DNA of 64,000 nucleotides, taken from Bacteroidota bacterium. GTDB lineage: Bacteria; Bacteroidota; Bacteroidia; Bacteroidales; UBA7960. The position numbers and the translations under genes are program-made. The notes below the pieces were generated by a model. It had not been told where the DNA came from, did no database searches, and worked only from the letters and a program-made list of their open reading frames with translations. The stretch lies in the NCBI GenBank assembly GCA_037441525.1, contig JBBISA010000001.1:151198-215197 (forward strand), in the 5' to 3' direction. Positions 5,519 to 21,418 of this stretch are shown in pieces (position 1 is the stretch's first letter; each line of letters starts with the position of its first letter).

Positions 5519-5553
5519 TTAATATTGTTTTGTGTTGAGTATGTTTTTCATAT

Positions 5554-6678
5554 TTAGTTGGCAGGAAACTTAAGGGTAAATGTACTTCCTGCATCGGGTT
5601 TGCTCTCTACCTGGATGGTGGCGTTGTATAGGTCGGCAATTTTCTTTACCAAAGAAAGGCCCAAACCTGTTCCGCTGATGTTTTTGGTTTGCTCGCTTTT
5701 TATGCGAACAAACTCTTCAAAAAGTTTTTCTATATCCTCTTCCTTCATCCCTATACCTGTATCAGTAACACTTAATAGCACCGAGTCATCGTCATCTTTT
5801 CTGATGTCTATATCTATTCGACCACCATTTTTGTTGTATTTCACAGCATTTGATACAAGATTATTGATTACAATCTCCAATTCCTGACGGTCGGCTCTGA
5901 GAGAGATATTTTCGTTGCAGTTGAGATGGATGTCAACATCTTTCTGGATACTCATGGGTTGCATGATATCAATGGATTGCCGGGCGATTTCGCTTAAAAA
6001 AACAGTTTTAATGTTGCGTGCTTTTTTGCCTGATTCGATGCGGGTAAAGTCGAGAAGATCAAGGATAAGGTTTCGCATTTCCTGCACTCTGGCCATGCTC
6101 CGGTTTATCATTTCAGTATAATCGCCCAGGTAGGGACCATTTCTTTTTTCAAGCATCAGTTTCAGGTAACCTTCAACCGCGTTGAGAGGTGATTTTAACT
6201 CGTGCGAAAGCACTGAAAGAAACTGAAAGCGTATTTGCTTGCCTTCTTGTTGCATTTTGGCGGTTATACGCCTTAAAAAGAGTTGTTTTGCAATATTTTC
6301 GAGACAACTACGAAGCTCTTTTGGGGTAAATGGTTTGGGTACAAAATCGTATGCGCCGCTTTTGGTAGCCTTTACGGCCATATCGAGTGATGCATAAGAA
6401 GTAATCATAACCACTATTGCTTCAAGGGCCTGAGAATTAATATATTCAAGAACTTCAATTCCTTGAATCCCTGGCAGTTTGTTATCGAGAAGAACTATAT
6501 CGAAAATATAGTTGTCGAGCAATTCAATGGCTTCTTCCCCGCTTTCGGCTTCATGCACTTCAAACTCAAAATCTTCATCCATAAAGGGATAGCTGACTGA
6601 AAAACTTTCCAGTATGCGCTTTATTCCACTCCTGATTCCCAATTCATCATCAACTACCAAAAGATTGAGTTTGCCCAT
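5554..6678 (-). CDS. Receiver-histidine kinase fusion (REC-HisKA-HATPase)
   Basis: The N-terminal REC domain shows LLVVDDE...DIVLLDNKLPG...KPF. The H-box is SHELKSPLNAV, the N-box is NAVKYN, G1 is DTGIGM and G2 is GTGLGL. There is no transmembrane segment and no DNA-binding domain. Confidence 0.85.
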   Translation of the reverse strand: MGKLNLLVVDDELGIRSGIKRILESFSVSYPFMDEDFEFEVHEAESGEEAIELLDNYIFDIVLLDNKLPGIQGIEVLEYINSQALEAIVVMITSYASLDMAVKATKSGAYDFVPKPFTPKELRSCLENIAKQLFLRRITAKMQQEGKQIRFQFLSVLSHELKSPLNAVEGYLKLMLEKRNGPYLGDYTEMINRSMARVQEMRNLILDLLDFTRIESGKKARNIKTVFLSEIARQSIDIMQPMSIQKDVDIHLNCNENISLRADRQELEIVINNLVSNAVKYNKNGGRIDIDIRKDDDDSVLLSVTDTGIGMKEEDIEKLFEEFVRIKSEQTKNISGTGLGLSLVKKIADLYNATIQVESKPDAGSTFTLKFPAN

Positions 6679-6687
6679 GCCAACCGA

Positions 6688-7086
6688 TTATATTTTGAGA
6701 AGTTTATTGATTTCCTTTTGCAACTGGTCCATCCTGATACCTTTATCCAGAAACATATCGGCCTTGATCCACTCCCGGTTTTCATCCGATTCCACATCGA
6801 AAAGAAGTCCTGTTTCGGCGGTTACTGCCGAAGCAATAATGATTGGAATATCGGGGTATTTGTTCTTTATAATATGGCACAGAATAAAACCTGTATCCTG
6901 GTTTTCCATCATCAAATCGAGGATAGCCAGATCGGGCTTCATTTTCTCAATAAAATCAACTGCTTCCTTTTGCGACGATGCTTCTGTTACATTAAAACCC
7001 ATATCGTTTAGCGCTATACCGAGCTGAAAAAGGTAATCTGGGTCATCGTCAACAATAAGAATTTTCTTTTTTTCTATTTTTAGCAT
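6688..7086 (-). CDS. Single-domain response regulator (REC only)
   Basis: 132 aa with KILIVDDDPD...DLAILDLMME...DKG. No output domain is present. Confidence 0.85.
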   Translation of the reverse strand: MLKIEKKKILIVDDDPDYLFQLGIALNDMGFNVTEASSQKEAVDFIEKMKPDLAILDLMMENQDTGFILCHIIKNKYPDIPIIIASAVTAETGLLFDVESDENREWIKADMFLDKGIRMDQLQKEINKLLKI

Positions 7087-7120
7087 TTTACCTTAGTTTT
7101 TACAAGTCCTTTTTATTTTT

Positions 7121-9151
7121 TTAAATTGCCCGTGCATTTTGCGCCACACGTGGCAACAAAACCATGAAGCTCGTGCCTGTTTGGCCTTTTTGCGGGTTGT
7201 CGTTTGATTCTACCTTAATATTTCCGTGGTGCATTTTCACAATTCCATAAATTATAGGCAATCCCAAACCTGTACCCTTACCGTCTTCCTTGGTAGTGAA
7301 AAAAGGTTCGAACATCCTTTCCATGTTTTCAGTCGAAATACCTGTACCAGTATCCCTGATAATAAAAACAAGTTCGTTGTCATTACCGGTAGCATCTTCA
7401 ACATTTATAGTCAACCTGCCACCCGATGGCATTGCATCAATGGCATTTTTAATCAGGTTAGAGAAAACCTGTACCATTTGATCGTGATCGCATTGTAAAA
7501 TCTGCTCCTGAGTTCTTATTTCAATAATCAGGTCGATGTTTTGGGGCATTACCAATGCTTTCATACTGTTCTTAATAAGGCTGCGGATATTTACCTCTGC
7601 AATGTCCACCTTGCTTTTTCTGGCAAAGTTAAGCAAACCGCCCACTATTTTCTTGCACCGGTCGGCCTGGTCAACAATAAGTTTCAGGTCTTTGTAATGA
7701 GGCGAATCGGGTTCAATTTCGTCGAGCAAAAGGTGGGCGTACATTATAACAACACCAAGCGGATTATTCACTTCGTGGGCAATACCCGCAGCAAGCTGGC
7801 CCATTGATGCCAGTTTTTCGCTTTGTTTAAGTGCCGCCTGGGTTGATGCCAGTTTTTTATTGCTAATATCGAGCTCTTTTATGTACTCATGCAGTTTATC
7901 GATGGTTGATGGCAGGCACATTTCGGTTTCAGCTATGCCTTTCAAAATGGCAATGGCATGTTCGTGGCACGTATCGTAGCCACATGCAGTACAGTTTAGC
8001 TCATCTTCCGGGCTTTTTATCCCAAGCCTTAACTTTACATTTTTTATTTCTTCTTCCGAAATATCAGTGCTGAACCGCTGATCGTCGGCAATAAAATAAC
8101 GGCTAAGGTCGGTATTGCGAAATTTTTCAAAATCATTTTTCCAGTTCTCTTGTCCTAACCGGGCAAACTGCCGCTTGGCAAAGTTGCTTATGCTTTTGCG
8201 CTTGAAAAAAAACTTGCTTCGATTACTCATGCCAGGTCCGTTAAAGCAGCCATTGCAGCAGAGCAAATCAAAAAGTTTCGCCTCAAGGTATCCCTCCTCA
8301 AATTCGCGCAATACTTCGGTAATGTCTTGCCGACCTTCAGCAACAACTATTTCACCGTTAAGGAAATCTTCCTCCAGATCGACAGTTTGAAGCATACCCC
8401 CACTAATGGGGAAAACAGAGCCTTTACCAGCCAATGGCGGGTCAAACTCAGATGGCTCAACTGCATCGTACTGAAGTTTTTTTTCATCGAACATTCGTCT
8501 CAGTTCAATAAATGAAATAACTTCATTCACCAACCCTTTAAACTGGTTATGTGTGGCCTCTGATTTTTTAGCAATACATGGACCAATAAATACTATTTTT
8601 AGGTCATCACCATGAATCCGCCTGAGCACTTTTGCCGTAGCTATCATGGGCGATACAATGGGAGCCAATGAGCGCACCACCTGTGGATGATGTTTCTCAA
8701 CATAGGTTACAATGGCTGGGCAACTTGTTGAAATATAAGGCTGTTTATGGTTTAATTGAAGTAAAGCTTTGTATTGATTTGCCACTAATTCAGCTCCAAA
8801 AGCAACTTCATTTACATAGTCGAATCCCAGTGCCCTTATCATTCCCACCAGTTTTTGATAGTCAGGAATATCGATAAACTCTGCAGCAATACTTGGAGCA
8901 ATTATGGCGGCCACGATGTTTTCACTCTGAATTAGCTTTTTTACACTGTCAATGGCAAACAGGAACATTTTAGCATCACGATTACATACCTTAACACAGT
9001 TTCCGCAGGCAATACAACGCTCGGGCATGATTTCGGCCTGTCCGTTCATTATACGGATGGCCTTTGCAGGGCACTCGCGAACACAGGTATAACAGACCCT
9101 GCAGCGGTCTTTTACTGTGTAAACGAGCTGGTTCTTATAGTCCATTGCCAT
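7121..9151 (-). CDS. Sensory-type [FeFe]-hydrogenase-like protein fused to a histidine kinase (HydS-like::HisKA-HATPase)
   Basis: There are two N-terminal C-x2-C-x2-C-x3-C ferredoxin motifs. The H-cluster domain has sensor-type motif variants: TSCP instead of TSCCP, GPCIAKKSE instead of MPCxxKxxE, and CCNGCFNGPG instead of MACxxGCxxGGGQP. The HydS-type extra cluster motif C-x2-C-x4-C-x16-C is present (CTACGYDTCHEHAIAILKGIAETEMC). This is followed by a coiled coil, the H-box AHEVNNPL, the N-box KNAIDA, G1 DTGTGI and G2 GTGLGL. Confidence 0.85.
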   Translation of the reverse strand: MAMDYKNQLVYTVKDRCRVCYTCVRECPAKAIRIMNGQAEIMPERCIACGNCVKVCNRDAKMFLFAIDSVKKLIQSENIVAAIIAPSIAAEFIDIPDYQKLVGMIRALGFDYVNEVAFGAELVANQYKALLQLNHKQPYISTSCPAIVTYVEKHHPQVVRSLAPIVSPMIATAKVLRRIHGDDLKIVFIGPCIAKKSEATHNQFKGLVNEVISFIELRRMFDEKKLQYDAVEPSEFDPPLAGKGSVFPISGGMLQTVDLEEDFLNGEIVVAEGRQDITEVLREFEEGYLEAKLFDLLCCNGCFNGPGMSNRSKFFFKRKSISNFAKRQFARLGQENWKNDFEKFRNTDLSRYFIADDQRFSTDISEEEIKNVKLRLGIKSPEDELNCTACGYDTCHEHAIAILKGIAETEMCLPSTIDKLHEYIKELDISNKKLASTQAALKQSEKLASMGQLAAGIAHEVNNPLGVVIMYAHLLLDEIEPDSPHYKDLKLIVDQADRCKKIVGGLLNFARKSKVDIAEVNIRSLIKNSMKALVMPQNIDLIIEIRTQEQILQCDHDQMVQVFSNLIKNAIDAMPSGGRLTINVEDATGNDNELVFIIRDTGTGISTENMERMFEPFFTTKEDGKGTGLGLPIIYGIVKMHHGNIKVESNDNPQKGQTGTSFMVLLPRVAQNARAI

Positions 9152-9199
9152 TGAGTTATTATTCTGAGCAATTCAATCGAAACGCCTTTAAATAATTGA

Positions 9200-10915
9200 C
9201 TATTTCAATACATCCCTTTTATGAAATTGGGTGAAAAATTCACTATCCAGTTCAGGATTTTGTGCTGCCAGCGAGTATTTTACCAAATCCTGGTTCAACC
9301 CTGCCATAATATTTGTTTTCAATTTTTCCAATTCCTGGGCCTGCTTTTTTCTCTGTTTTTGTTTGTCTGTATACATTACTATAGGTTGCCCGCCACCACC
9401 TGCACATCCGCCCGGGCAGGCCATTATCTCAATATAGTGTATATCGTTGCGACCTTCGGCTTTTAGCTGCTCCAGATATTTAGCAGTTTCTGCAATTCCG
9501 CTAACCCAGGCAAAACCATAATCATGTTTGCCTATTTTTACCTTCACTTCTCTTTTGCTACCAGGGTTTTTTGGGGGTGTGAAACGAAATGCACTGGCCG
9601 ATTTACCATTGACCATCAGATTCAACTGGTAAGCAACTGCTTCAGCTTTTCCGCCTGAGTATGACATCTGGAAGCCTGCTGATGAAGCATTGCCCTGGAG
9701 CATATCGGGTTCTTCGGGTTGAAGTTGAAGAATATTTAGTCCGAAACTCCTCATCATTCTTAAAAATTCTCTGACAGTGATAACGGCATCGGTTTCTGAA
9801 ATCCCTTTTTGGGTGTTTTCTTCGCGGGCTGCCTCAAATTTATTTGCCACACAGGCTGACAGTGCTACGGTGTATAGCCTTTCTGGCTCGGTATCCTTGC
9901 AGAGCTCATACTTTACAAGCCTTCCCATTAGCTGCTGTGGTGATTTTATGTTCGAAACATCAGGAAGCATTCCCGGCATAAACTCTTCGGCGTATTCAAC
10001 CCATGACGGACAGCATGATGAAAGCAACGGAACGGTAATTTCTTTTTCAACTCTTTCCTTCAGCCTTGATGCTTCAAGAATTATATTCAGATCACTGGCC
10101 ATTGCCGTATCAAAAACCTTGTTAAACCCTATATGTTTTAAGGCTGCGATGATAAGACCTTCGGGATTGTCGGTTGTTTTGATATTTAGATGTTCGGCTA
10201 CTGATGCAGTAAAACCTGGCGATATCATTGCCACCGTTGTTTTTTTCTGGTTGTTGATAGCTGATTGTACTTTTTCAATATGCGAAATATCGACCAGTGC
10301 ACCGGTGGGGCAATACATAATACATTGCCCGCAATCAATGCAACTCGAAACATTCAAACCTTTATTGAAGGCTGAGTTGACCCGGGTTTTGTTTCCTCTT
10401 GCTACAAATTCAATAGCAGTTACCAACTGCATTTCTTCGCAAACCCTGACGCATCGGTTGCATAAAATACATTTCGATGGGTCGCGATACACACTTGGGC
10501 TCGAATGGTCACGTTGTTCGCTGTTTTTTTTACTGTAATACCTTCTTTCCTTTACATGCAATTCTTCGGCAAGCCATTGCAATTCGCAGTTTCCGTTTCG
10601 CTCGCAGTATAAACAATCGTCGGGGTGGTTGGCCAATAACATTTCCACAATGGCTTTCCGGGCCTTTATTACCCTTTGTGTATTGGTTTTTACTATCATT
10701 CCGGGCTCTACAGGATAGGTGCATGATGTAATAAGGTCCCTTTTCCCTTCCACCTCAACCACACATAGCCTGCATGCGCCGGCTGGTGTAAATCCTGTTA
10801 TCTGACATAAGGTAGGAATTCTGATTCCATTGCGACGGAGTACAGTGAGAAGAATTTCTTCGTCCTGTACCTGCATCTGGGTATTATTTACGTTTATGTT
10901 AAAACTCATTGCCAA
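9200..10915 (-). CDS. hydA: [FeFe]-hydrogenase catalytic subunit, NuoG-like N-terminus (HydA of a HydABC complex)
   Basis: It has an N-terminal plant-type 2Fe-2S domain, a His-ligated cluster motif (HPDDCLYCERNGNC) and two 4Fe-4S motifs (CILCNRCVRVC, CIDCGQCIMYCP). The H-cluster L1 motif is SSCCPSW and L3 is IEIMACPGGCAGGGGQP. L2 is atypical (SACVANKFE). Confidence 0.85.
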   Translation of the reverse strand: MAMSFNINVNNTQMQVQDEEILLTVLRRNGIRIPTLCQITGFTPAGACRLCVVEVEGKRDLITSCTYPVEPGMIVKTNTQRVIKARKAIVEMLLANHPDDCLYCERNGNCELQWLAEELHVKERRYYSKKNSEQRDHSSPSVYRDPSKCILCNRCVRVCEEMQLVTAIEFVARGNKTRVNSAFNKGLNVSSCIDCGQCIMYCPTGALVDISHIEKVQSAINNQKKTTVAMISPGFTASVAEHLNIKTTDNPEGLIIAALKHIGFNKVFDTAMASDLNIILEASRLKERVEKEITVPLLSSCCPSWVEYAEEFMPGMLPDVSNIKSPQQLMGRLVKYELCKDTEPERLYTVALSACVANKFEAAREENTQKGISETDAVITVREFLRMMRSFGLNILQLQPEEPDMLQGNASSAGFQMSYSGGKAEAVAYQLNLMVNGKSASAFRFTPPKNPGSKREVKVKIGKHDYGFAWVSGIAETAKYLEQLKAEGRNDIHYIEIMACPGGCAGGGGQPIVMYTDKQKQRKKQAQELEKLKTNIMAGLNQDLVKYSLAAQNPELDSEFFTQFHKRDVLK

Positions 10916-10920
10916 AAGGG

Positions 10921-12870
10921 TTAATCGACTATAACAGCATTAAACTTACACACCTCAAAACAGGCATTACAGGCAATACATTTATCCTGCACAATAAAAT
11001 GTGGTTGCCGCGGAGAACCAATGATGGCATCCACAGGGCACTTTTTAAAACATGCTGTGCAACCGGTACACATATCCACATCAATGTTGTAGGTTCTGAG
11101 TTCGCGACATACCCCAGCCGGACATTTCCGCTCGAAAACATGTGCGTCGAACTCAGTTTTAAAGTTCGACAAAGTGTTGAGTATGGCATTTGGTGCCGAT
11201 TTGCCAAGAGAGCACAAACTTGAGTCCTTCATTACATCGGCCATATTTTTTAAATGCATTATGCCCTTGAAACGCTCAAGGGTTTGAAACGCATTTTCCT
11301 TCGAAGGCCTGCGGGTTGCTGATTCCACAATTTCGAGCATCAATGCTGTACCTTCGCGGCATGGAATGCATTTTCCGCAACTTTCATTTTTAAAGAAAGC
11401 CGTAAAAAAACGGGCCAGATCAAGCATACAACTGTCTTGGCCTACTACCACACAGGCTCCGCTTCCAAGTTGTGAACCCACCGAACGCAATTCCTGAAAA
11501 TCCACACGCGTATCAATAGTTTTTTCGGTGATATAACTCCCACTGTTTATACCCAGGATGATTGCTTTAAAGGGTGCAACTCCTTTCATGCCACCTCCGA
11601 TTTCTTCAACAATGGTCCTGAAGGTTATTCCCATTTCAACTTCAATGGTGCCATACCTCATTACTTTTCCGCTGAGGGTAAATAGCTTGGTACCTTTGCT
11701 TACCTTATTGCCGATGGTTTTAAACCAATCAGGCCCGTTTTTAATGATCAACGGCACATTTATAAGAGTTTCCAGATTGTTTACAATGGTAGGTTTATTC
11801 CATAAACCCTTTATTGCCGGGAAAGGTGGCTTGTAAACCGGCATCGCTCTTTTTCCTTCAATACTGTTTATCAGCGCGGTTTCTTCTCCGCACACAAAGG
11901 CCCTGGCTCCTTCTTTCACAATCACATCAAGGTTAACACCCGATTCAAAGATGTGATGCCCGATAATTCCAAACTCCCGGGCTTGTTTTATTGCTTCATT
12001 AAGTCTTTCAATTGCCAGTGCAAACTCGCCCCGGGTAAAGATGAATGCCTTGGAGGCTCCTATGGCGTAGGAAGCTATTAAAAGTGCCTCAATTAACTTG
12101 TGAGGATTGCTTTCCATTATCACCCTGTTCATATAACTGCCAGGGTCGCTTTCAACGGCATTACAAACGAAATACTTCTGGTCGCTCACCGCATTGAGCG
12201 ATATTTTCCATTTTTTACCGGCAAGAAAAGCTCCTCCGCCCCTTCCGGCAAGTTCACTCTCTTCAACAATATCGCATACCTGTGAGGGAGTATGGTGGGT
12301 AATTGTATCAGCAAAAGCCTGATAACCTCCTTTTGCAATGTATTGTTCTATCGAAACAGGGTCAATAATGCCACAATTTGCAGTAAGGATTTTTTTCTGT
12401 GGTGCAAAAAATGGCAAATCATTCATAAAAGGAACACCTTCCCAGAGTTGGTGCAATTCGTTGCGGTATTGCCCCAACACATGCTTTTCAGGGAGATTGT
12501 TATTGAGAATTTCATCCAAAAAAGATGGAACATCATCTTTGTAAACATTATGAAATGAAATTCTGGCCTTTCCCGGAAGTTGAATATCTACAATGGGCTC
12601 GGCAGCACAGAAACCGTTACAACCTCCTTTTATAAGGTCAATGTTCAGTCCGTTATCCGCAATGTACTTTTCAATTGCCAGGTAAGTTTTCAGCGCACCC
12701 GCAGCAACACCACAGGTTGCAGTGCCTACAAAAATCAACGGATTAGAAATGCGTTCAAGGGCAATATAAGACAGTTGCCTGGCAATAGCAGGGTCAGCAT
12801 CCCTTTGGGGATTAAGCAGAACCTTTTCGATAAGATACTGCTTTATTTGGGCAGGATCATTAATTTTCAT
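10921..12870 (-). CDS. hydB: NADH-binding flavoprotein subunit of the hydrogenase (NuoF-like)
   Basis: 649 aa. It has an FMN/NADH region (GRGGGAFLAGKKW), the N3-type cluster motif ESCGKCIPCREG, an N-terminal thioredoxin-like Cys motif (GGCNGFCAAEP) and a C-terminal 2x[4Fe-4S] ferredoxin (CTGCTACFKKCP, CIACNACFEVC). Confidence 0.9.
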   Translation of the reverse strand: MKINDPAQIKQYLIEKVLLNPQRDADPAIARQLSYIALERISNPLIFVGTATCGVAAGALKTYLAIEKYIADNGLNIDLIKGGCNGFCAAEPIVDIQLPGKARISFHNVYKDDVPSFLDEILNNNLPEKHVLGQYRNELHQLWEGVPFMNDLPFFAPQKKILTANCGIIDPVSIEQYIAKGGYQAFADTITHHTPSQVCDIVEESELAGRGGGAFLAGKKWKISLNAVSDQKYFVCNAVESDPGSYMNRVIMESNPHKLIEALLIASYAIGASKAFIFTRGEFALAIERLNEAIKQAREFGIIGHHIFESGVNLDVIVKEGARAFVCGEETALINSIEGKRAMPVYKPPFPAIKGLWNKPTIVNNLETLINVPLIIKNGPDWFKTIGNKVSKGTKLFTLSGKVMRYGTIEVEMGITFRTIVEEIGGGMKGVAPFKAIILGINSGSYITEKTIDTRVDFQELRSVGSQLGSGACVVVGQDSCMLDLARFFTAFFKNESCGKCIPCREGTALMLEIVESATRRPSKENAFQTLERFKGIMHLKNMADVMKDSSLCSLGKSAPNAILNTLSNFKTEFDAHVFERKCPAGVCRELRTYNIDVDMCTGCTACFKKCPVDAIIGSPRQPHFIVQDKCIACNACFEVCKFNAVIVD

Positions 12871-13366
12871 AGTCTGTTTCTGGATTTTGCCTGAAATAAC
12901 TGATTAAGTTTTTTACTGAATCCAAATCCAGGTTGGTATAGTATTGCTGGTTAATTTCAATAACCGGGGCAAGTCCGCAGGCCCCAATACATGATACTAC
13001 CTCAAGGCTGAACAAGCCTGATTTGTCAGTTTCGCCACTTTTAATTTTCAGGTGTTTTTCCAGTTCGGTCAATATGTTTGAAGAACCAGCAACATGGCAG
13101 GCAGTACCGTTGCACAGCCTGATATGATATTTTCCCTTGGGTCCGAACCTGAAATTATCATAAAATGTAGCTACCCCAAAAATTTTGTTAACAGAAATAT
13201 CGAGGTACTTTCCCACATGAATAATGATCTCTTCTGATAAAAATCCGAAATGGTCCTGAATTTTGTGCAACATGGGGATCAGATCGTCGCGTTGTCGGTT
13301 GGGAAATTGTTCAAAAATTACCGAGAGTTTCCTATCCATGGGTGTGTGTTGATAAATTCTTAACAA
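12860..13366 (-). CDS. hydC: [2Fe-2S] thioredoxin-like subunit of the hydrogenase (NuoE-like)
   Basis: 168 aa with the NuoE Cys pattern CNGTACH...SCIGACGLAPV. It overlaps hydB by 11 nt. Confidence 0.9.
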   Translation of the reverse strand: MLRIYQHTPMDRKLSVIFEQFPNRQRDDLIPMLHKIQDHFGFLSEEIIIHVGKYLDISVNKIFGVATFYDNFRFGPKGKYHIRLCNGTACHVAGSSNILTELEKHLKIKSGETDKSGLFSLEVVSCIGACGLAPVIEINQQYYTNLDLDSVKNLISYFRQNPETDYEN

Positions 13367-13447
13367 TGAAAGACAGGGTTATATTTAGCTGCTCCAGGGT
13401 TTGATAAATAAGCTGTTATACTGATCATAACCTTCAGGCAGTTGCCA

Positions 13448-13455
13448 CAAATATA
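13448..13455 (-). promoter_or_regulatory. Candidate Bacteroidota -7 promoter box (TATATTTG) for hydCBA
   Basis: The minus strand reads TATATTTG, matching the TAnnTTTG consensus. It lies about 80 nt upstream of the hydC ATG. Confidence 0.35.
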
Positions 13456-13593
13456 AGAAAAATTATAAGTGCCAAGGGTTTATTTAAGGGGCAATCAGGC
13501 CAATTTAGACTTAATCTGATTCAGCATTAAGTGCCCGGGATATTTTGCTGTGAAGTTATTAGCATTTTAACCCGTAGATAATTGGATTATAGT

Positions 13594-13601
13594 TAATTTT
13601 G
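13594..13601 (+). promoter_or_regulatory. Candidate Bacteroidota -7 promoter box (TAATTTTG) for the ferredoxin/hydS/phosphatase operon
   Basis: It matches TAnnTTTG and lies about 60 nt upstream of the ATG at 13663. Confidence 0.35.
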
Positions 13602-13615
13602 TGAAAAAAATAACA

Positions 13616-13631
13616 GGTGAATAGGTTCACC
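13616..13631. promoter_or_regulatory. Candidate Rex operator (GGTGAA-TAGG-TTCACC)
   Basis: The 6-nt arms are perfect inverted repeats with 4-nt spacing. This matches the core GTGAA-N4-TTCAC of the Rex consensus TTGTGAA-N4-TTCACAA. A TTGTGAA half-site also lies at 13599..13605. The palindrome is immediately downstream of the putative -7 box. Confidence 0.5.
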
Positions 13632-13662
13632 ACACAACCAGCATGTAATTCCACTTTCGCTG

Positions 13663-13923
13663 ATGGTACAAAACGTTCAAACAATAGTAATATGTATGGG
13701 GAGCAGTTGCTTTTCGCGAGGCAATAAGAAAACGGTTGCATTTTTACAGCAATACCTTAAAGATCGAAAGCTTGAAGACCATGTTACTCTTAAAGGGGCA
13801 CATTGTATGGGGCATTGTGAGAAGGGCCCTGTAATTAAACTGGATAATGACTTATTTTTTTACTCCGATCAACAAAAACTTGAGGCCTTACTTGATAAAG
13901 CATTTAATGTTAAAGGAGCCTAA
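13663..13923 (+). CDS. Small thioredoxin-like [2Fe-2S] ferredoxin
   Basis: 86 aa. The Cys pattern is C-x4-C ... C-x3-C (CMGSSC ... CMGHCEKGP), typical of the NuoE-C-terminal/thioredoxin-like ferredoxin fold. Confidence 0.75.
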   Translation: MVQNVQTIVICMGSSCFSRGNKKTVAFLQQYLKDRKLEDHVTLKGAHCMGHCEKGPVIKLDNDLFFYSDQQKLEALLDKAFNVKGA

Positions 13924-14107
13924 AATCTATACCATATTACATAGCGGAGTATCAGGGTACGAAAACTTAAATTACCAAGGCTTTAATTATGAAACGAAAA
14001 TATTTGCCAAAGAAAACAATCGGGTTTGCGAGCTCAACAAAATTAAACCTCCATCAAAATTGCAAACATGGAGTTCCATCAGACCTTTTAAAGAAAAATC
14101 CTGACTG

Positions 14108-15964
14108 ATGAAACTTATATCAATCGACCTCGATAAGTGTAATACTTCTTATGCCTGTGTAAGGGCATGCCCGGTAAAGGCTATTACCATCAATAAAAAA
14201 ACTGACCTTCCTGAAGTTAATCACGATCGATGCATAGGATGTGGTGGTTGTCTTGGGGTATGCCAGGCTGGTGCAGTATCATATAAAAGTTCAATAGATG
14301 AAACCCTTGAACTGCTTAAATCTGACCAACAGGTGGCTGCTATTGTTGATCCCAGCATCAGCGGCGAATTTCCGGATATAACCGATTACCGCAGATTTGT
14401 TGAAATGATTAGGGTTTTAGGATTCAACTATGTTAATGAGGTTTCCTTTGGTGTAGATTTGGTGGGTAGGGAATACAACAACCTGTTTACCAACTTTCGT
14501 GGGAAATATTACCTTACATCCAATTGTCCAACAGTAACAGCATACATTGAAAAGTTTTTTCCCGAAATGATCAACAATCTCAGTCCTATTGTTACCCCTA
14601 TGACCGCAACGGCTATGGTGGTAAGAAAGCTTTACGGGAAAGATATAAAGGTTGTTTTTATTGGTCCGTGCATATCGGCAAAGCACGAGGCAATCCGTCA
14701 TGATGGTGAAGCAAAAGTTGATGCAGTGCTCACCTTCCAGGAATTAAGGGAACTTTTTTCACGATTCAATGTAACGGAATCGAAAGTGGAATACTCCGAT
14801 TTTGACAAACCCATTGGCAACCTGGGATCACTTTATCCACTGAGTCGCGGAATACTCGCAGCGGCCGGCCTGGTCGAAAACCTGCTTGGTTCCGATATTT
14901 TTACTGCATCCGGAGCCGGAAACATCCTTGATGCTGTTCAGGAGTTTCATGCCAGGCCAGAAGCGGTAAAAAAACACTTCAATCTTTTTTATTGCGAAGG
15001 ATGTTTAATGGGCCCAGGTACCAGCAACACCAGCCATAAATTTCTCAGAAAAACCCTGGTCGTTGATTATTCACGCAAACGTCTTGAAAAATTTGACGAA
15101 CCAGAGTGGAATAAATACATGGCTGAGTTTTCTGAATTGCAACTTTCGCGTATATTTCTAAACGACGACCAACGCCTTGAAATGCCCTCAGATGACCACA
15201 TTGAAGAAATCCTTAAATCAGTAGGCAAAACACCCAACGAAAAAGGAGCATGTAGCGCTTGCGGATTCAGATCGTGCCGTGATTTTGCCATTGCGGTAAG
15301 CCAGGGCCTTTCAAAACCCGATACATGTCTTACATGGTCGCTCAAAAATAAACAGGATTACATTAAAACCCTGAAAACCAATAACGAAAAACTAAGGAAA
15401 CAACAGATTGAAGCAGAGGAAAACCAAAAACTTCTGAAGGCTGAAAATCAAAAAATCAAAATAAAGTCTGATACTATCTCCTCTTTGTTGCAAAATTTAC
15501 CCTCTGCAGCCGTTATTGTTGACGAAAAACTTAAGGTAATAGAATCTAATCAGTCATTTATCAATATCTTAGGTGATGATGCAAAACTTATAAACGATGT
15601 TATTCCCGGATTAATAGGGGCTGATCTTAAAACTCTCCTGCCCTATAATATCTATAATCTTTTCAGTTTTGTGCTTCAGAAAGATGAAAACATTATTAGC
15701 CGTGATATCCATTTTAATGATGGTTTGTTGAATATCAGTGTATTTTCATTAAAACCAAACAAAATTGTTGGTGCGGTATTAAGAGATATGTATGTTGCTG
15801 AAGTGAGGCAGGAAGAAATTATAAACCGTGTCAATGAAGTGATAGATGAGAACCTGAAAATGGTTCAGCAAATTGCCTTTTCGCTGGGAGAAGGGGCATC
15901 GAAAACGGAAAAAATGCTCAATTCAATAATTGAAACATACAAAAAAATTAAAAAGGCTGATTAA
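14108..15964 (+). CDS. Sensory-type [FeFe]-hydrogenase-like protein with C-terminal PAS domain (HydS-like)
   Basis: It has two N-terminal 4Fe-4S motifs. The H-domain carries sensor-type variants (TSNCP, GPCISAKHE, YCEGCLMGPG). The C-x2-C-x4-C-x16-C motif is present (CSACGFRSCRDFAIAVSQGLSKPDTC). A coiled coil and a PAS-like C-terminus follow (LPSAAVIVDEKLKVIESNQSF...). Confidence 0.85.
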   Translation: MKLISIDLDKCNTSYACVRACPVKAITINKKTDLPEVNHDRCIGCGGCLGVCQAGAVSYKSSIDETLELLKSDQQVAAIVDPSISGEFPDITDYRRFVEMIRVLGFNYVNEVSFGVDLVGREYNNLFTNFRGKYYLTSNCPTVTAYIEKFFPEMINNLSPIVTPMTATAMVVRKLYGKDIKVVFIGPCISAKHEAIRHDGEAKVDAVLTFQELRELFSRFNVTESKVEYSDFDKPIGNLGSLYPLSRGILAAAGLVENLLGSDIFTASGAGNILDAVQEFHARPEAVKKHFNLFYCEGCLMGPGTSNTSHKFLRKTLVVDYSRKRLEKFDEPEWNKYMAEFSELQLSRIFLNDDQRLEMPSDDHIEEILKSVGKTPNEKGACSACGFRSCRDFAIAVSQGLSKPDTCLTWSLKNKQDYIKTLKTNNEKLRKQQIEAEENQKLLKAENQKIKIKSDTISSLLQNLPSAAVIVDEKLKVIESNQSFINILGDDAKLINDVIPGLIGADLKTLLPYNIYNLFSFVLQKDENIISRDIHFNDGLLNISVFSLKPNKIVGAVLRDMYVAEVRQEEIINRVNEVIDENLKMVQQIAFSLGEGASKTEKMLNSIIETYKKIKKAD

Positions 15965-16023
15965 ACAGAGATTGTCAAATTAAAGATATGACATCTAATG
16001 GGTTTATTCGCAATCACATATAA

Positions 16024-17205
16024 ATGGACGAATCGTTTTACATAGAAGTTGGAGTAAATCAGAAAAGCCATTTTGGCGAACGGATTTGTGGTGATGTTTT
16101 CCTTTCGAGAAAGGTTAAGGAGGAAAACAGGACAATTTTGGTACTTTCGGATGGTATGGGTCATGGTGTTAAAGCCAATCTTCTTGCCACTCTTACCGCC
16201 ACTATGGCTCTGAATTTTACCGTTGAGCATAAAGATGTCCATAAAATTGCCGAAATCATTATGAATACCCTGCCCGTTTGCAGCGAGCGAAAAATCAGCT
16301 ATTCCACATTCACAGTGGTTGATATTGAAAGTACCGGACAAACAACCATAATTAATTACGACAACCCCGAGTGCATAATTTTGCGAGGTGAGGAACTTCT
16401 CAAATCCCAATGGCATACCATAACCCTCGAAACAGAATCGCAAAACAAGGAAATCAGAGCATGTACCTTTAAAGCAAAGAAAGAAGACCGGATTATATTG
16501 CTTTCTGACGGCATCACACAATCAGGGCTTGGAAAAGGCAAATACCTACTGGGTTTTGGTTTGGAAAATACTCGCGAATTAGTTTTGTCCAAATTAAAGG
16601 AAAATGCGTCCATTTCTGCCGTAAAACTCTCAGGTGCTCTGGTTAGCAAAGCTCATAGCAACGACGATTATCAACCAAAGGATGATATAAGCACTGTTGT
16701 TGTTTACTTGCGCGAACCCCGAAAATTATTGCTTTGCTCAGGTCCACCCTTCGATACGGCCAAAGATGAATACCTGGCAAACAAAGTAAGAGACTTTAAC
16801 GGGAAAAAAATTTTATCCGGTGGCACCACTGTGGATATTGTGGCGCGTATTCTTAATACTTCTGTAGAAGATACGCTTGAATTCAACGATCCTGATTTGC
16901 CCCCGCTTTCCTACATGGAGGGGATAGACCTTGCCACTGAAGGCATTTTAACCCTGAGCAAGGTGAGTAATATACTCGAAAAATTCAATGAACGTACCGA
17001 ACTTGGCAGAGGCCCTGCAGACCTTATAGTTAAGATGCTGCTCGAAAGTGATGAAATTTACCTGTGTATCGGCACCGCAATTAACATAGCGCATCAAGAC
17101 CCCAACCTTCCGGTTGAATTAGAGATTCGAAGAAGTGTAGCAAGAAAACTATCAATTCAGTTAGAAGAGAAATTTCTTAAGGAAGTTTTTATTGAATTTA
17201 TATAG
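16024..17205 (+). CDS. PP2C/SpoIIE-family serine phosphatase with an uncharacterised ~160-aa C-terminal domain
   Basis: It has the motifs GDVF...LVLSDGMGHGVKA and ILLSDGITQSG, which carry the metal-binding Asp residues of SpoIIE-type PP2C. It lies 60 nt downstream of the hydS-like gene. Confidence 0.85.
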   Translation: MDESFYIEVGVNQKSHFGERICGDVFLSRKVKEENRTILVLSDGMGHGVKANLLATLTATMALNFTVEHKDVHKIAEIIMNTLPVCSERKISYSTFTVVDIESTGQTTIINYDNPECIILRGEELLKSQWHTITLETESQNKEIRACTFKAKKEDRIILLSDGITQSGLGKGKYLLGFGLENTRELVLSKLKENASISAVKLSGALVSKAHSNDDYQPKDDISTVVVYLREPRKLLLCSGPPFDTAKDEYLANKVRDFNGKKILSGGTTVDIVARILNTSVEDTLEFNDPDLPPLSYMEGIDLATEGILTLSKVSNILEKFNERTELGRGPADLIVKMLLESDEIYLCIGTAINIAHQDPNLPVELEIRRSVARKLSIQLEEKFLKEVFIEFI

Positions 17206-17549
17206 CCTCAATTATTAAAGCTAATCTAAATATTTCTATATTTAGTCTGAAAAAAATACGATTTTGCTACGACATTATCTTATTTTAAATTAGTCTAAAT
17301 AACAATTAATAGATTCTTATAAAAAAAATTAATTAAACCAACTTTTCTATTATGCTGATTTTTAGACACAAACAACTTAATTAGTTTTAAATCGAAATAA
17401 ATCAAGTTTTGGTCGACATATTTTGTGTTTGAATTGTAGAGAATTATTTTTACATTTGTTGCGTTGATTTTTATTAGTCAACATTATCCGACAACGCAAA
17501 TACAAAAATCGGCTGTTTACCGGTTGATTTTTTGAAAACTAAAAATTAA

Positions 17550-20282
17550 GTGAAAAGGTTTTTCATTGGCATAGCTGCAATCTTTTCTCTTGTACTGATT
17601 ATACTGACAGGCACTTTGGTGCAACAAGAAACTGCATCCCAACTCCCCAGCAGGCTGCAAACAGGTATAATCAGCGAGATAAACGGAACCTTAACTGTAA
17701 CCGAAAGTTCAGGTTTTATAACATTTTTATCCGAATCCTCTTTCGTAAAAGTTATTGCAACCTTTCTGGGAAATTCCAAACCATTACTGACCAACCGGGT
17801 ATCAACCATAATGGCAAACGATAATAGTGGAATTATTGTAAGTGTTGCAGCAATTATTCTTATTTTATCCATTGCTGTTTTAATTCTGGGGTTCCTTCTG
17901 TACCAAACCATAAAAGCCCGTAAAAGAGCTTATTCAACAGAAAAAAGGTTCAAATCCCTCCTCGAATCGAACCCTTCGGCAATGATGATTTTTCAGAATT
18001 TCAAGCTTAAATTTATTAATTCTTCCCTGGAACAATTAACCGGATTTACACGAGGGGAATTATCGCAAATGGAAATTTGGCAGCTTATTCACCCCAACAG
18101 CCTTTCCAATCCGCAAAATGAAAATATTAACATCGAAGGAAATGGATTTAATTTCAGAGGCGAGTTTCAGATTATAACAAAAACCAAGGACATAAGATGG
18201 ATTGACCTTTCAACCCGTTCTATTGAGTACGACAACCAGCCGGCAGTTTTAGCAACTGCCATTGATATAACATCATCTAAACAAGCCCAGCTTGAATTGA
18301 TAAAGAGCGAGTTCAGATACAAGAATTTCTTCTTTAAAAACTCAGCCGTAATGCTGATTGTAGACCCGGCCACATCAGTGGTTCAGGATGCTAACCAGGC
18401 GGCTATCGACTTTTACGGTTACTCCAGAGAACAACTTATGGGAATGAATCTGAGCGAAATAAATACCACCCATCCCGAAAAGATAAGCGAAAAAGCAAAC
18501 GCCGAACAAAGTGAAACCCGAACATTCTACCTCTGTAATCAAAAACTTGCAAATGGTTCAGTAAGAGAGGTTGAGTTGCATTCAAGTACCATAATCGAAA
18601 AAAATACTATGCTTGATTATTGTATAATATTCGATGTAACTGAGAGAAAAAAAATTGAACAGGAACTGAAACAAGCAAAAGAAATTGCCGAAGAAGCCAA
18701 CCGTGTAAAATCTTTCTTTGTGTCCAATGTAAGTCATGAGATTAGAACACCCCTTAATGCCATTATCGGACTTACCGACCTTGTAATTGAAGGAGAAAAT
18801 CTTTCTGTTGACCAGATGGAAAACATGAAATCCATCAAATATTCATCAGACCACCTGCTCGGAGTAATAAATGACGTGCTGGATTTCTCAAAACTCGAAG
18901 CAGGCAAGGTAGATATTGAAAAACTTGACTTCGACCTGTTCACACTGATGCATGAATCGGTCAGAACAGTTGAATTCAGGGCTCGCGAAAAAGGTATTGA
19001 GTTAATTAGCGAAATTGACAAAAACATACCCCCTGTAATTAAAGGCGACCCATCAAGATTAAGACAAGTTTTGCTCAATCTACTTAGTAATGCAGTAAAA
19101 TTTACTCATGAAGGGCATATCAATATTCAGGTGAAATTGCTAAAATTGAATACTGAACATGTAGAATTGAGATTTTCGGTCTCTGATACAGGTATTGGGA
19201 TTCCTGAAGATAAACAAGGCCAGCTTTTTCAAAGTTTTATTCAGGCCGACACCGATACTGCCCGCAAGTTTGGTGGCACAGGACTTGGGCTTTCTATTTC
19301 GAAAAAACTTGTTGAGTTGCAGGGAGGACATATTGGGCTCAAGAGTATGCAGAATATGGGTTCAACCTTCTGGTTTACACTCGCATTTGACATTAGTGAT
19401 AAAACCTTCATCCCCGATATGAGTAAAATTGGCTCAAAATTGAGGGATCTGAAAGGAATTAATATTTTATTGGTTGAAGACGACCGCATGAATCAGTTTG
19501 TAATGCGCCGTATTATTGAAAAATGGAATACCTCCATTGATATCGCCCAAAATGGACGTGAAGCCATTCAGAAACTTGAAAGAAACAACTACGACCTGGT
19601 GCTGCTCGACCTGCACATGCCAGAAATGAATGGTTATGAAACCGCCCGAAAAGTCAGAGACCCACGCTCAAATGTCCTTAATCATAATATTCAATTAATA
19701 GCCCTTACAGCCGATGTTACTTCTGAAACACGCAAAAAGGTTAAGGATGCTGGCATGAACGATTTCATTACCAAGCCTTGCGACCAGGAGATAATATATG
19801 AAAAAATATTTAGCGCTGCCAGTAATGCCAAAACCGCATTTGTTGAACGAAAATCCCAGGAAATTGCTCCTGAGACCAATCAGATGGCTAATGTTGAAAA
19901 AGCCAAACTTAGAGTAAAAAAATCACTGGAAGATATTTTTGATGACGACCTGGAAGGGATTGTTTCACTCATTACCAAGTTTTTAAAAGAAATACCACGT
20001 ACCATTGTGGGTATAAACGAGTCACTTTTCGATCAGGATATTGATACGGTGGGGAAACTGGTTCATAAGATAAAACCAGGTTATAGCTATATGGGATTCA
20101 GCGAAGTATCCGACATTATCGAACAAATACAGGAATTATCCAAATCAAAATTTAACATTAACGAAATTGAAACACTTTGTCGTGAATTAGATGAAAAATC
20201 AAGAAATATTATCTCTATCCTTAAAGAAGTTCACCGCGATTACCTCAAAAGCAATTCGGTAAAACTTAATTCTGGCAAGTGA
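17550..20282 (+). CDS. Hybrid sensor histidine kinase (TM-periplasmic-TM, 2x PAS, HisKA, HATPase, REC, HPt)
   Basis: GTG start. There are two hydrophobic segments. The H-box is SHEIRTPLNAI, G2 is GTGLGLSISKKL, the REC domain shows ILLVEDD...DLVLLDLHMPEMNG, and a C-terminal HPt-like motif VHKIKPGYSYMG is present. Confidence 0.9.
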   Translation: MKRFFIGIAAIFSLVLIILTGTLVQQETASQLPSRLQTGIISEINGTLTVTESSGFITFLSESSFVKVIATFLGNSKPLLTNRVSTIMANDNSGIIVSVAAIILILSIAVLILGFLLYQTIKARKRAYSTEKRFKSLLESNPSAMMIFQNFKLKFINSSLEQLTGFTRGELSQMEIWQLIHPNSLSNPQNENINIEGNGFNFRGEFQIITKTKDIRWIDLSTRSIEYDNQPAVLATAIDITSSKQAQLELIKSEFRYKNFFFKNSAVMLIVDPATSVVQDANQAAIDFYGYSREQLMGMNLSEINTTHPEKISEKANAEQSETRTFYLCNQKLANGSVREVELHSSTIIEKNTMLDYCIIFDVTERKKIEQELKQAKEIAEEANRVKSFFVSNVSHEIRTPLNAIIGLTDLVIEGENLSVDQMENMKSIKYSSDHLLGVINDVLDFSKLEAGKVDIEKLDFDLFTLMHESVRTVEFRAREKGIELISEIDKNIPPVIKGDPSRLRQVLLNLLSNAVKFTHEGHINIQVKLLKLNTEHVELRFSVSDTGIGIPEDKQGQLFQSFIQADTDTARKFGGTGLGLSISKKLVELQGGHIGLKSMQNMGSTFWFTLAFDISDKTFIPDMSKIGSKLRDLKGINILLVEDDRMNQFVMRRIIEKWNTSIDIAQNGREAIQKLERNNYDLVLLDLHMPEMNGYETARKVRDPRSNVLNHNIQLIALTADVTSETRKKVKDAGMNDFITKPCDQEIIYEKIFSAASNAKTAFVERKSQEIAPETNQMANVEKAKLRVKKSLEDIFDDDLEGIVSLITKFLKEIPRTIVGINESLFDQDIDTVGKLVHKIKPGYSYMGFSEVSDIIEQIQELSKSKFNINEIETLCRELDEKSRNIISILKEVHRDYLKSNSVKLNSGK

Positions 20283-20324: not shown

Positions 20325-20359
20325 GGCCTTCGATGAAATATTTGAAGGCCATTATTTTT
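20325..20359 (+). terminator. Intrinsic terminator after the hybrid kinase gene
   Basis: The hairpin GGCCTTC-N12-GAAGGCC is followed by ATTATTTTT. It lies inside the 5' extension of the ribD ORF, which supports the downstream ribD start. Confidence 0.6.
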
Positions 20360-21418
20360 ATGGAAAAATACGATTTTTTTATGCACCGCTGTCTGGAACT
20401 GGCCCAAAACGGGCTGGGAATGGTTGCTCCAAACCCCATGGTGGGTAGTTTAATAGTGCATAATGGTTTAATTATCGGCGAAGGGTATCATCAGAAGTAC
20501 GGCGGCCCACATGCTGAAGTAAACGCAATCGCTTCGGTTAAAAATAAAGAACTTCTTACTCAATCAACACTTTTTGTAAACCTGGAGCCATGTTGCCACT
20601 TTGGAAAAACTCCACCCTGTACCGACCTTATTCTCCAAAGTAGAATCCCTCATGTTGTAATTGGATGTATTGACCCATTCGATGCTGTTGCCGGTAAAGG
20701 TATCTCGAAGCTCAGGAATAACGGTGTAAGAGTTGAAGTGGGCATTTTAAGAAAGGAATCACTCTCGTTAAATAAAAGATTCTTTACTTTTCATGAAAAA
20801 AACCGGCCCTATATTATCCTGAAGTGGGCTCAAACGGCCGATGCATTCATAGATATTGAACGACTGCCCGGAACCCCCGCCAGGCCTACCTGGATAACTT
20901 CAGAAAACCTAAGAATGCTTGTTCATAAATGGAGGACTGAAGAACAGGCAATAATGGTGGGAACAATTACTGCCCTGAAAGACAACCCAAAACTTAATGT
21001 GCGAGAATGGAGTGGTAATCAACCCACACGAATCGTTATAGATGAAGACCTTACACTTTCAAACACCCTTCATCTTTTCGATAATACTCAGAAAACTATC
21101 GTGTTTAACTCCAAAGAAGACCTAATTAAGGAAAATACCCATTGGATTAAATTGAATTTTGCTGACAAGCAATTCCTGGAAATATTGCTGACTGAATTGA
21201 AAAACAGAAAAATACAGTCGGTGATTGTTGAAGGTGGTCAAAAACTATTAAAAGCTTTTATCACCTCCCAAACATGGGATGAAGCAAGAATTTTTCAGGG
21301 AAATAAATTTTTTGAAAACGGTCTAAGAGCACCTACCCTTCCACAACAAGGTTTTTCACAGATATTTATCGGGCAGGAATTACTTTATTGGATTAAGAAT
21401 CCGGATTCTCATTACTGA
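20360..21418 (+). CDS. ribD: Bifunctional diaminohydroxyphosphoribosylaminopyrimidine deaminase / 5-amino-6-(5-phosphoribosylamino)uracil reductase
   Basis: It has the deaminase zinc motifs HAE...PCxxxxxxPPC (HAEVNAI, LEPCCHFGKTPPC) and a C-terminal reductase domain. The start was set at the ATG after the terminator hairpin. Confidence 0.9.
   Translation: MEKYDFFMHRCLELAQNGLGMVAPNPMVGSLIVHNGLIIGEGYHQKYGGPHAEVNAIASVKNKELLTQSTLFVNLEPCCHFGKTPPCTDLILQSRIPHVVIGCIDPFDAVAGKGISKLRNNGVRVEVGILRKESLSLNKRFFTFHEKNRPYIILKWAQTADAFIDIERLPGTPARPTWITSENLRMLVHKWRTEEQAIMVGTITALKDNPKLNVREWSGNQPTRIVIDEDLTLSNTLHLFDNTQKTIVFNSKEDLIKENTHWIKLNFADKQFLEILLTELKNRKIQSVIVEGGQKLLKAFITSQTWDEARIFQGNKFFENGLRAPTLPQQGFSQIFIGQELLYWIKNPDSHY

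Follow-up and report, generated by a model that had tools for sequence, protein, structure and literature searches.

The subject of this analysis is a three-gene operon in the genome of an uncultured member of the Bacteroidales (UBA7960). It lies in a stretch of 64,000 nucleotides (nt) of contig JBBISA010000001.1 (assembly GCA_037441525.1, positions 151,198-215,197), called here the window, the numbering of which is used below unless another locus is named. The three genes, all on the plus strand, encode a [2Fe-2S] ferredoxin of 86 amino acids (aa) (13663-13923, PF01257), a sensory-type [FeFe]-hydrogenase homologue of 618 aa, HydS (14108-15964, recognised by Pfam and NCBIfam matches and by its motifs), and a PP2C/SpoIIE phosphatase of 393 aa (16024-17205, PF07228). 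In the opposite direction, on the minus strand, runs a hydrogenase operon which opens with hydC (NuoE-like, 12860-13366) and continues with hydB (NuoF-like flavoprotein subunit, 10921-12870) and hydA (catalytic [FeFe]-hydrogenase subunit, 9200-10915). An original prediction, made by a model from the letters alone, had placed three open reading frames (ORFs) with these domains opposite hydCBA, and their coordinates, strand and Pfam matches bear it out.

Judged by architecture and context alone, the locus is a group C3, or phosphatase-linked, putative H2-sensing module. HydS carries the H-cluster cysteines (motifs P1, P2 and P3), three sensor-type substitutions and a PAS domain, and the phosphatase gene begins 60 nt past hydS on the same strand. 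HydDB defines this class as one of putative H2 sensing via Ser/Thr phosphatases (PMC5037454). The locus is not a new kind of system: it belongs to a known and widespread but uncharacterised class (HydDB C3, hfsB/hfsC-like), found here in a new host lineage, and the likeness to phosphatase-linked HydS loci that had been proposed holds for hfsB and hfsC.

Conservation of the operon and of the two-sensor layout

For the study of synteny, 80 loci were fetched from Bacteroidota genomes and compared by ORF clustering and tblastn mapping; the counts of gene layout refer to the 59 of them with at least 9 kb of upstream sequence. The order ferredoxin-HydS-PP2C is conserved, HydS being found upstream of PP2C in 50 of the 59 loci and the ferredoxin gene upstream of the HydS/PP2C pair in 48. 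The triad is not a chance assembly, since its synteny is kept in most of the 80 loci. Downstream of the phosphatase, no conserved gene was found across the 80 loci.

On the other side of the locus, hydA is followed on the minus strand by a fusion of HydS and histidine kinase (HydS-HK) of group C1 type (7121-9151), which is the second sensor of the locus, and then by a stand-alone receiver (6688-7086) and a receiver-histidine kinase (5554-6678). The divergent layout hydC-hydB-hydA-HydS-HK is complete in 28 of the 59 loci, and the receiver is present in 26. The original prediction had considered it unusual that two types of H2 sensor should surround the same hydrogenase. This part of the claim does not stand: the same arrangement (hydCBA, HydS-HK, receiver and receiver-histidine kinase on one side; ferredoxin, HydS-PAS and PP2C on the other) recurs in these 28 Bacteroidota loci, and the two-sensor layout is thus standard in the lineage. 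In a paper on Hydrogenedentota, both C1 and C3 genes are likewise reported to adjoin A3 hydrogenases.

The ferredoxin gene is also found in three more distant loci (L103, L105 and L106). Among the variants seen in distant loci are a single operon, hydCBA-ferredoxin-HydS-PP2C, and a triad standing by itself amid housekeeping genes. A further variant occurs in Bellilinea sp. (GCA_026003575.1, locus L106, 6940-11167), where NuoE, NuoF, a small ferredoxin, a PAS-only protein of 164 aa and the same two-domain PP2C are encoded together, with no hydrogenase domain. Since ferredoxin, PAS and PP2C are kept here in the absence of the hydrogenase domain, both PAS and ferredoxin are tied to the phosphatase; taken together, the distant variants leave as the invariant core a ferredoxin, a PAS-type transmitter and this phosphatase. 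The Bellilinea module suggests a redox-sensing version of the cassette, possibly responding to NADH, and the exchange for NuoEF-like proteins suggests that ferredoxin, PAS and phosphatase form a core of general use in redox signalling.

As a side observation, a tandem duplication of the HydS-PP2C pair (HydS, PP2C, ferredoxin, HydS, PP2C) was seen at about 4800-11200 in the loci L055 and L060 (both Marinifilum) and L078 (Labilibaculum); the first HydS copy of these tandem loci is just about 30% identical to the HydS of the window.

The HydS sensor protein

HydS begins with an N-terminal 2x[4Fe-4S] ferredoxin domain (aa 4-59, 14117-14284; Fer4_6, Fer4_10 and Fer4_7), followed by the H-cluster domain (aa 75-303, 14330-15016; PF02906 Fe_hyd_lg_C, E 7e-40), all features of the protein lying on the plus strand. 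The motifs named in the original prediction are all present: TSNCP at aa 137-141, GPCISAKHE at aa 186-194, YCEGC within FYCEGC at aa 295-300, and the four-cysteine spacing C382-x2-C-x4-C-x16-C407. When HydS is aligned to a canonical HydA from a second hydrogenase locus of the same genome (contig C12, described below), the cluster-ligating cysteines are found to be kept (TSNCP/GPC/CEGC against TSCCP/MPC/CPGGC), and the residues N, G and F are read at the positions of C299, M353 and M497 of CpI. These same three positions deviate in the sensory HydS of Thermotoga (PMC10055695).

Beyond the H-cluster domain, the four-cysteine motif (aa 382-407, 15251-15328; PF04060, E 1.2e-5) is a putative site for an additional [4Fe-4S] cluster. 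It is followed by a predicted coiled coil (about aa 412-455, 15341-15472), heptad-rich in K, E and Q and with a weak match to ZapB, and by the PAS domain (about aa 455-557, 15470-15778). The PAS domain had been claimed from the single sequence, in which the Pfam matches are weak (PAS_9 and PAS, E 0.007), but it is backed by a profile of 35 orthologous HydS C-terminal regions, the PDB matches of which are exclusively PAS domains: the best, over about 100 residues, are those of a histidine kinase (5e-4), Aer2 (1e-3) and DcuS (3e-3), and YtvA is also among them. The protein ends in a helical tail, delimited by orthologue conservation (about aa 560-612, 15785-15943). These roughly 55 residues form the best-conserved stretch of the C-terminal region, with invariant I, Q, I, G, E and E columns, and the tail is a candidate docking surface for the phosphatase.

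The phosphatase and its C-terminal domain

The phosphatase is made up of two domains. The N-terminal one (aa 1-230, 16024-16713, plus strand) is a PP2C/SpoIIE domain, with a Pfam match over aa 34-227 (PF07228, E 6.6e-17) in which NCBIfam agrees, and conservation among relatives is 90% or higher at the metal-binding aspartates D24, D43, D162 and D220/D221. AlphaFold2, run on 85 sequences, gave a confident two-domain model (mean predicted local distance difference test, pLDDT, 93.5; predicted template modelling score 0.89). A Foldseek search with the N-terminal domain returned SpoIIE, 3pu9, RsbU-type proteins, RsbX and Rv1364c, with E values from 1e-13 to 1e-10. From the conserved metal ligands and the modelled fold, the phosphatase looks active.

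The C-terminal domain (aa 232-393, 16717-17202, plus strand), defined by model and conservation, belongs to no described family. The last 160 or so residues had been said to match nothing recognisable; this proves true of the whole phosphatase family, as domain and fold searches (Pfam, NCBIfam, PDB profile, Foldseek) assign no family to them. Neither Pfam nor NCBIfam gave a match, and a PDB profile search found nothing significant, the nearest hits being a SIS-type isomerase and an asparaginase at E 0.4-1.2. When modelled alone (pLDDT 92), the domain is predicted to adopt a three-layer alpha/beta, Rossmann-like fold, for which the best PDB matches in Foldseek are phosphoglycerate kinase, UbiX, methylglyoxal synthase and FwdB domains, with E values of about 0.01 (best 9e-3) and template modelling scores of 0.48 at most; in terms of the model, this is fold-class similarity only. 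No STAS structure was found among the top 50 Foldseek matches, and kinship with the DRTGG domain was rejected (hhalign probability 0.6%).

Within the family, conserved motifs are found in this domain: GPP, GGTT (aa 265-268, at a strand-to-helix junction), PP, TEG and GT..N.AHQDP. Their conservation suggests that they mark a binding site, perhaps for a phosphate group. The family itself is large. A word-indexed search gave more than 6,500 relatives, the best of them proteins of 394 aa from Bacteroidales metagenome-assembled genomes (MAGs), and an exhaustive search of representatives at 50% identity gave no fewer than 323 clusters at E <= 1e-30; almost all of these are 380-410 aa long and match over their full length. 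The C-terminal 160 aa are therefore an integral and conserved part of the family, the members of which are found in Bacteroidota, Chloroflexota (Bellilinea caldifistulae) and Acidobacteriota and are annotated solely as "SpoIIE family protein phosphatase". No description of this domain was found in open-access papers; present in nearly every phosphatase of the type, it offers a handle for further work.

Search for a partner of the phosphatase

In the original prediction, no partner kinase or phosphoprotein could be seen for the phosphatase. As regards the window this stands, given that no Ser/Thr kinase, RsbW-like or other anti-sigma-type HATPase, or STAS gene lies beside the operon. It does not stand for the genome, which encodes, on contig C12, an RsbW-like kinase of the HATPase_c_2 type and DRTGG-like proteins in a second hydrogenase locus; moreover, in some relatives this cluster abuts the phosphatase gene. 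The kinase is not encoded immediately outside the window, and its arrangement is not that of a STAS/RsbW pair.

The genome was searched in an assembly of 4.2 Mb which is 99.7% complete. The search for STAS domains gave three matches, namely the tail of a SulP transporter, an MlaE fusion and a protein of 105 aa below the Pfam cut-off. The last of these is the sole stand-alone STAS-like gene (contig C26, 30253-30570, minus strand; locus L110), and it lies beside a single-domain receiver and two proteins of about 620 aa without Pfam match. It was rejected as a partner, being almost restricted to the genus and not tracking PP2C. Thus, no stand-alone STAS antagonist was found to be encoded with the phosphatase or with the kinase. 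The genome holds three Hanks-type Pkinase genes, all on contig C83, and two other SpoIIE phosphatases, one an ORF of 868 aa further along the contig of the window (C1) and the other a TPR-SpoIIE protein on contig C44. In the window and in the C12 locus no sigma factor gene was seen, no systematic search having been made.

Two small RsbW-like kinases are encoded in the genome, one on contig C33, beside ybeY and gidA, and the other on C12. The former was set aside as not specific, because it is present in 10 genomes that lack the phosphatase. The C12 kinase is the most likely candidate for the partner of the phosphatase, an identification that we put forward tentatively and at somewhat less than even confidence.

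The kinase cluster of the second hydrogenase locus

The second hydrogenase locus spans about 44000-63000 of contig C12 (locus L012) and has its own rex gene and two further HydA genes (591 and 617 aa), so that, with the set of the window, the genome encodes three HydA paralogues and three HydS-type proteins. The gene order is rex, a DRTGG protein (114 aa), the RsbW-like kinase (158 aa), a HydS-like protein (459 aa), a DRTGG-like protein (131 aa), a PHP phosphoesterase, a HATPase_c protein, a small NuoE-like protein, hydB, hydA and hydC. The N, G1 and G2 boxes of the kinase are intact. In the HydS-like protein the four-cysteine motif is kept and the H-cluster motifs are altered. The two small DRTGG-like proteins (13373-13717 and 11068-11463 of L012, both on the minus strand) have in common the motif (F/Y)(A/V)SDL(M/L)SDV, which is strictly conserved across orthologues, and the serines of its SDL(M/L)SDV part are candidate phospho-acceptors.

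Two kinds of observation connect this cluster with the phosphatase. One is adjacency: in the loci L054, L069 (Plebeiibacterium marinum) and L074, the genes for ferredoxin, HydS, PP2C, DRTGG, kinase, HydS-like protein, DRTGG-like protein and PHP onward follow one another on one strand; in L064 three modules, namely a locus of the window type, the triad and a C12-type cluster, are contiguous, and in L035 and L084 the clusters likewise lie side by side. The other is co-occurrence: among 61 relatives, the kinase is found in 37 of the 41 genomes with PP2C and in none of the 20 without it, ten of which still have HydA (Fisher p 8e-8 per genome, 0.0014 per family). A class-level sample of 201 Bacteroidia genomes, in which the phosphatase was found in the window's own genome only, is uninformative on co-occurrence. 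In open-access papers, no link of the PAS-HydS phosphatase to an RsbW-like kinase/DRTGG cluster was found.

Proposed mechanism

The explanation that we favour, and consider probable with due reserve, is that of a C3 module for H2 sensing with a phosphatase output which opposes a kinase encoded elsewhere. By extension from the work on TmHydS, HydS would bind an H-cluster and have lost the residues for fast catalysis, so that H2 would set the redox state of its iron-sulfur chain, with the small [2Fe-2S] ferredoxin as a likely outlet or inlet for electrons. The redox change could then be relayed from the four-cysteine cluster through coiled coil, PAS domain and helical tail to PP2C, which direct contact with HydS would switch on or off. 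The Rossmann-like C-terminal domain may serve as a docking module or as the site of a phosphate-bearing ligand. PP2C, for its part, would remove from a small regulatory protein the Ser/Thr phosphate set by a kinase outside the operon, the likely targets of that kinase, if it is the one on C12, being the pair of small DRTGG-like proteins encoded on either side of it. Kinase and phosphatase might in this way form a circuit resembling a partner switch, presumably tuning hydrogenase and fermentation genes to the H2 level and running parallel to the HydS-histidine kinase relay encoded across hydCBA.

Several points weigh against parts of this explanation. The PAS assignment in HydS depends on weak scores, and the contact of HydS with PP2C, like its dependence on H2, is something that we infer. 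As regards the kinase, the Fisher values overstate independence because the compared genomes are related, and when the sample was widened to 50 Bacteroidota genomes with PP2C, 18 of these, some of them incomplete MAGs, had no orthologue of the kinase at E <= 1e-5. In the distant loci L103, L105 and L106 no kinase lies within 10 kb. Moreover, the kinase moves together with a HydBA operon of its own, so that the co-occurrence may mirror no more than a genome's wealth in hydrogenases, and the C12 cluster could be self-sufficient, since a PHP phosphoesterase and a second GHKL ATPase are encoded within it. To our knowledge, DRTGG proteins have not been described as phospho-acceptors. The gaps in the wider sample make the link between phosphatase and kinase a lead and not a proof, and it is these gaps, together with the distant loci, the kinase's own operon, the kinship of the genomes and the PHP protein, that hold our confidence in the C12 kinase below even.

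A bolder proposal would be that the HydS-linked PP2C and the C12 kinase make up an unrecognised H2-responsive circuit, in which the DRTGG-like proteins with their SDL(M/L)SDV motif replace STAS antagonists and the C-terminal domain of the phosphatase is a new module for docking or ligand sensing. Taken as a whole this is speculative, and we think it rather unlikely to hold in every part; if true, such a circuit would supply the missing downstream pathway for the sensory [FeFe]-hydrogenases of several phyla.

Alternative explanations

The most serious alternative is that the target of the phosphatase has nothing to do with the C12 cluster, being instead a substrate of a Hanks-type kinase, or else a metabolic enzyme or regulator such as AdhE, PFOR, Rex or HydABC, and that the link with the RsbW-like kinase is a by-product of the way in which hydrogenase operons travel. 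The three Pkinase genes on C83 would provide the kinase, and the phosphatase-bearing genomes without RsbW-like kinase (18 of 50), as well as the distant loci with no kinase nearby, are in line with it; so is the finding that deletions in the hfs genes of Thermoanaerobacterium alter adhE expression and alcohol dehydrogenase activity (PMC5707799, PMC11837493). A Hanks-type kinase, however, lies near the operon in none of the 80 loci, no conserved gene lies downstream of PP2C, and the RsbW-like kinase alone is both co-distributed with PP2C and sometimes adjacent to it. We regard an unrelated target as unlikely, but as deserving serious consideration. The phosphatase might also serve the neighbouring His-Asp relay, either as its output or as a modulator, with the C-terminal domain docking the phosphorylated stand-alone receiver in a manner comparable to RsbY or RssB. 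In 28 of the 59 loci the relay adjoins the PP2C operon in divergent orientation, the relay (HydS-HK, receiver, receiver-histidine kinase) is without a DNA-binding or enzymatic output domain of its own, and RssB is one of the PP2C proteins to which Foldseek likens the PP2C domain. Nevertheless, no histidine kinase relay accompanies the triad in roughly half of the Bacteroidota loci and in any distant locus examined, and the C-terminal domain is unlike receiver-binding modules; in addition, the triad has its own sensor, so that a second input is not needed. Such a role in the relay is improbable.

Finally, HydS could be a working ferredoxin-linked hydrogenase of the Hfs type, with the ferredoxin as its redox partner and the phosphatase regulating the enzyme post-translationally. 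Indeed, the earliest account of the hfs operon presented it as the principal H2-producing hydrogenase of Thermoanaerobacterium saccharolyticum (PMC5707799, PMC11837493), every cysteine ligand of the H-cluster is present in HydS, and a dedicated ferredoxin is co-encoded in 48 of the 59 loci. The residues of the catalytic environment speak otherwise: the proton-transfer cysteine (C299 of CpI) is replaced by Asn and the two Met positions by Gly and Phe, three positions at which substitution is described as a feature of sensory HydS (PMC10055695). The deletion of hfsB increased hydrogenase activity (PMC5707799, PMC11837493), the PAS domain and the coiled coil are signalling features, and the Bellilinea module persists without the hydrogenase part. 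A catalytic role is accordingly the least probable of the alternatives and, in our judgement, very improbable.

Relation to known systems

With the HydDB C3 class and the HydS of Thermotoga maritima (PMC5037454, PMC10055695), the module of the window has in common the sensor-type H-cluster, the C-terminal four-cysteine motif, the PAS domain, a co-encoded Ser/Thr phosphatase and a place beside a HydABC of the bifurcating type; it differs in its uncultured Bacteroidales host and in being paired, within the locus, with a group C1 HydS-HK. In the case of hfsABCD of T. saccharolyticum (Shaw 2009), compared by published domain descriptions, a PAS hydrogenase followed by a serine phosphatase is common to both, whereas the operon of the window opens with a small [2Fe-2S] ferredoxin and has no HfsD-like hydrogenase after the phosphatase. 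In Thermoanaerobacterium, HfsB is the PAS hydrogenase and HfsC the serine phosphatase, and deleting the one or the other shifts fermentation in opposite directions: deletion of the PAS hydrogenase raised both ethanol yield and hydrogenase activity, whereas deletion of the phosphatase gave no rise in ethanol yield and directed flux to lactate (PMC5707799, PMC11837493). By analogy, these genetic data fit a regulatory role for the module.

The RsbU/RsbV/RsbW and SpoIIE/SpoIIAA/SpoIIAB systems resemble the one proposed here in the PP2C subfamily, as judged by fold, and perhaps in the genomic link, seen in some relatives, with a GHKL serine kinase similar to RsbW and SpoIIAB. Unlike them, the present module has neither STAS antagonist nor sigma factor, its candidate kinase is flanked by DRTGG-like proteins, and the extra domain of the phosphatase is C-terminal instead of an N-terminal RsbT-binding or PAS/coiled-coil region. 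Furthermore, in Thermoanaerobacter and Caldanaerobacter a histidine-kinase-like ATPase and a 'group D' hydrogenase-like protein are found upstream of the bifurcating HydABC (PMC3608648). The C12 cluster has the same kind of content; the link to PP2C is proposed here from adjacency and co-occurrence in Bacteroidota.

Sensory [FeFe]-hydrogenases have been the subject of spectroscopic work, and the question addressed here is how fermenting anaerobes sense H2 and adjust their hydrogenase and fermentation genes to it. To this question the analysis contributes a candidate kinase and a candidate set of substrates for the HydS-linked phosphatase. Two cultured species, Plebeiibacterium marinum and Marinifilum flexuosum, carry the genes side by side or in duplicate.

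The ferredoxin, the upstream region and neighbouring genes

The protein encoded by the first gene of the operon matches 2Fe-2S_thioredx (PF01257, E 2.7e-10) and has cysteines at positions 11, 16, 48 and 52. The spacer between its gene and hydS (13924-14107) is long (184 nt, whereas related loci have a median of 18 nt) and shares no sequence with the long ferredoxin-hydS spacers of other loci. An ORF of 85 aa which overlaps it (13847-14104) matches no Pfam family and is probably spurious. A riboswitch or other RNA element near the operon was considered and rejected, as the Rfam scan of 13300-17600 gave no RNA family at E <= 1 and the spacer sequence is variable.

Upstream of the operon, a perfect palindrome with a Rex-like core, GGTGAATAGGTTCACC, occupies 13616-13631, 32 nt ahead of the ferredoxin start codon. 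The same palindrome also scores as a terminator-like hairpin with a T-run on the minus strand, and it is missing at the corresponding position in all 49 other loci with the ferredoxin gene. For these two reasons it was rejected as a Rex operator of the module and is not counted in it.

The minus-strand string that contains the hydrogenase operon ends with rex, the gene for the redox-sensing repressor (4871-5518); beyond it, ribF, a gene of the metallo-beta-lactamase fold and hydG are found. Two peculiarities of the HydA of the window may be recorded. Its P2 motif is atypical, reading LSACVANKFE instead of the expected MPCxxKxxE, and it has no small-subunit-like C-terminal domain (PF02256), which both HydA paralogues of C12 possess.

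Downstream of the operon, after a gap of 344 nt, a hybrid kinase with the architecture PAS-PAS-HisKA-HATPase-REC-Hpt is encoded on the plus strand (17550-20282). It was rejected as an operon member and lies probably outside the module, as no more than 3 of the 80 related loci have it. The next gene is ribD (20333-21418), and ribF (3900-4871) is found within the hyd/rex string on the other side. In the distant locus L103, a full ribD-ribE-ribBA-ribH operon lies immediately 3' of the PP2C gene (11444-14960). The presence of riboflavin genes beside hydrogenase genes may be linked to the need of HydB for flavin mononucleotide, or may be due to chance.

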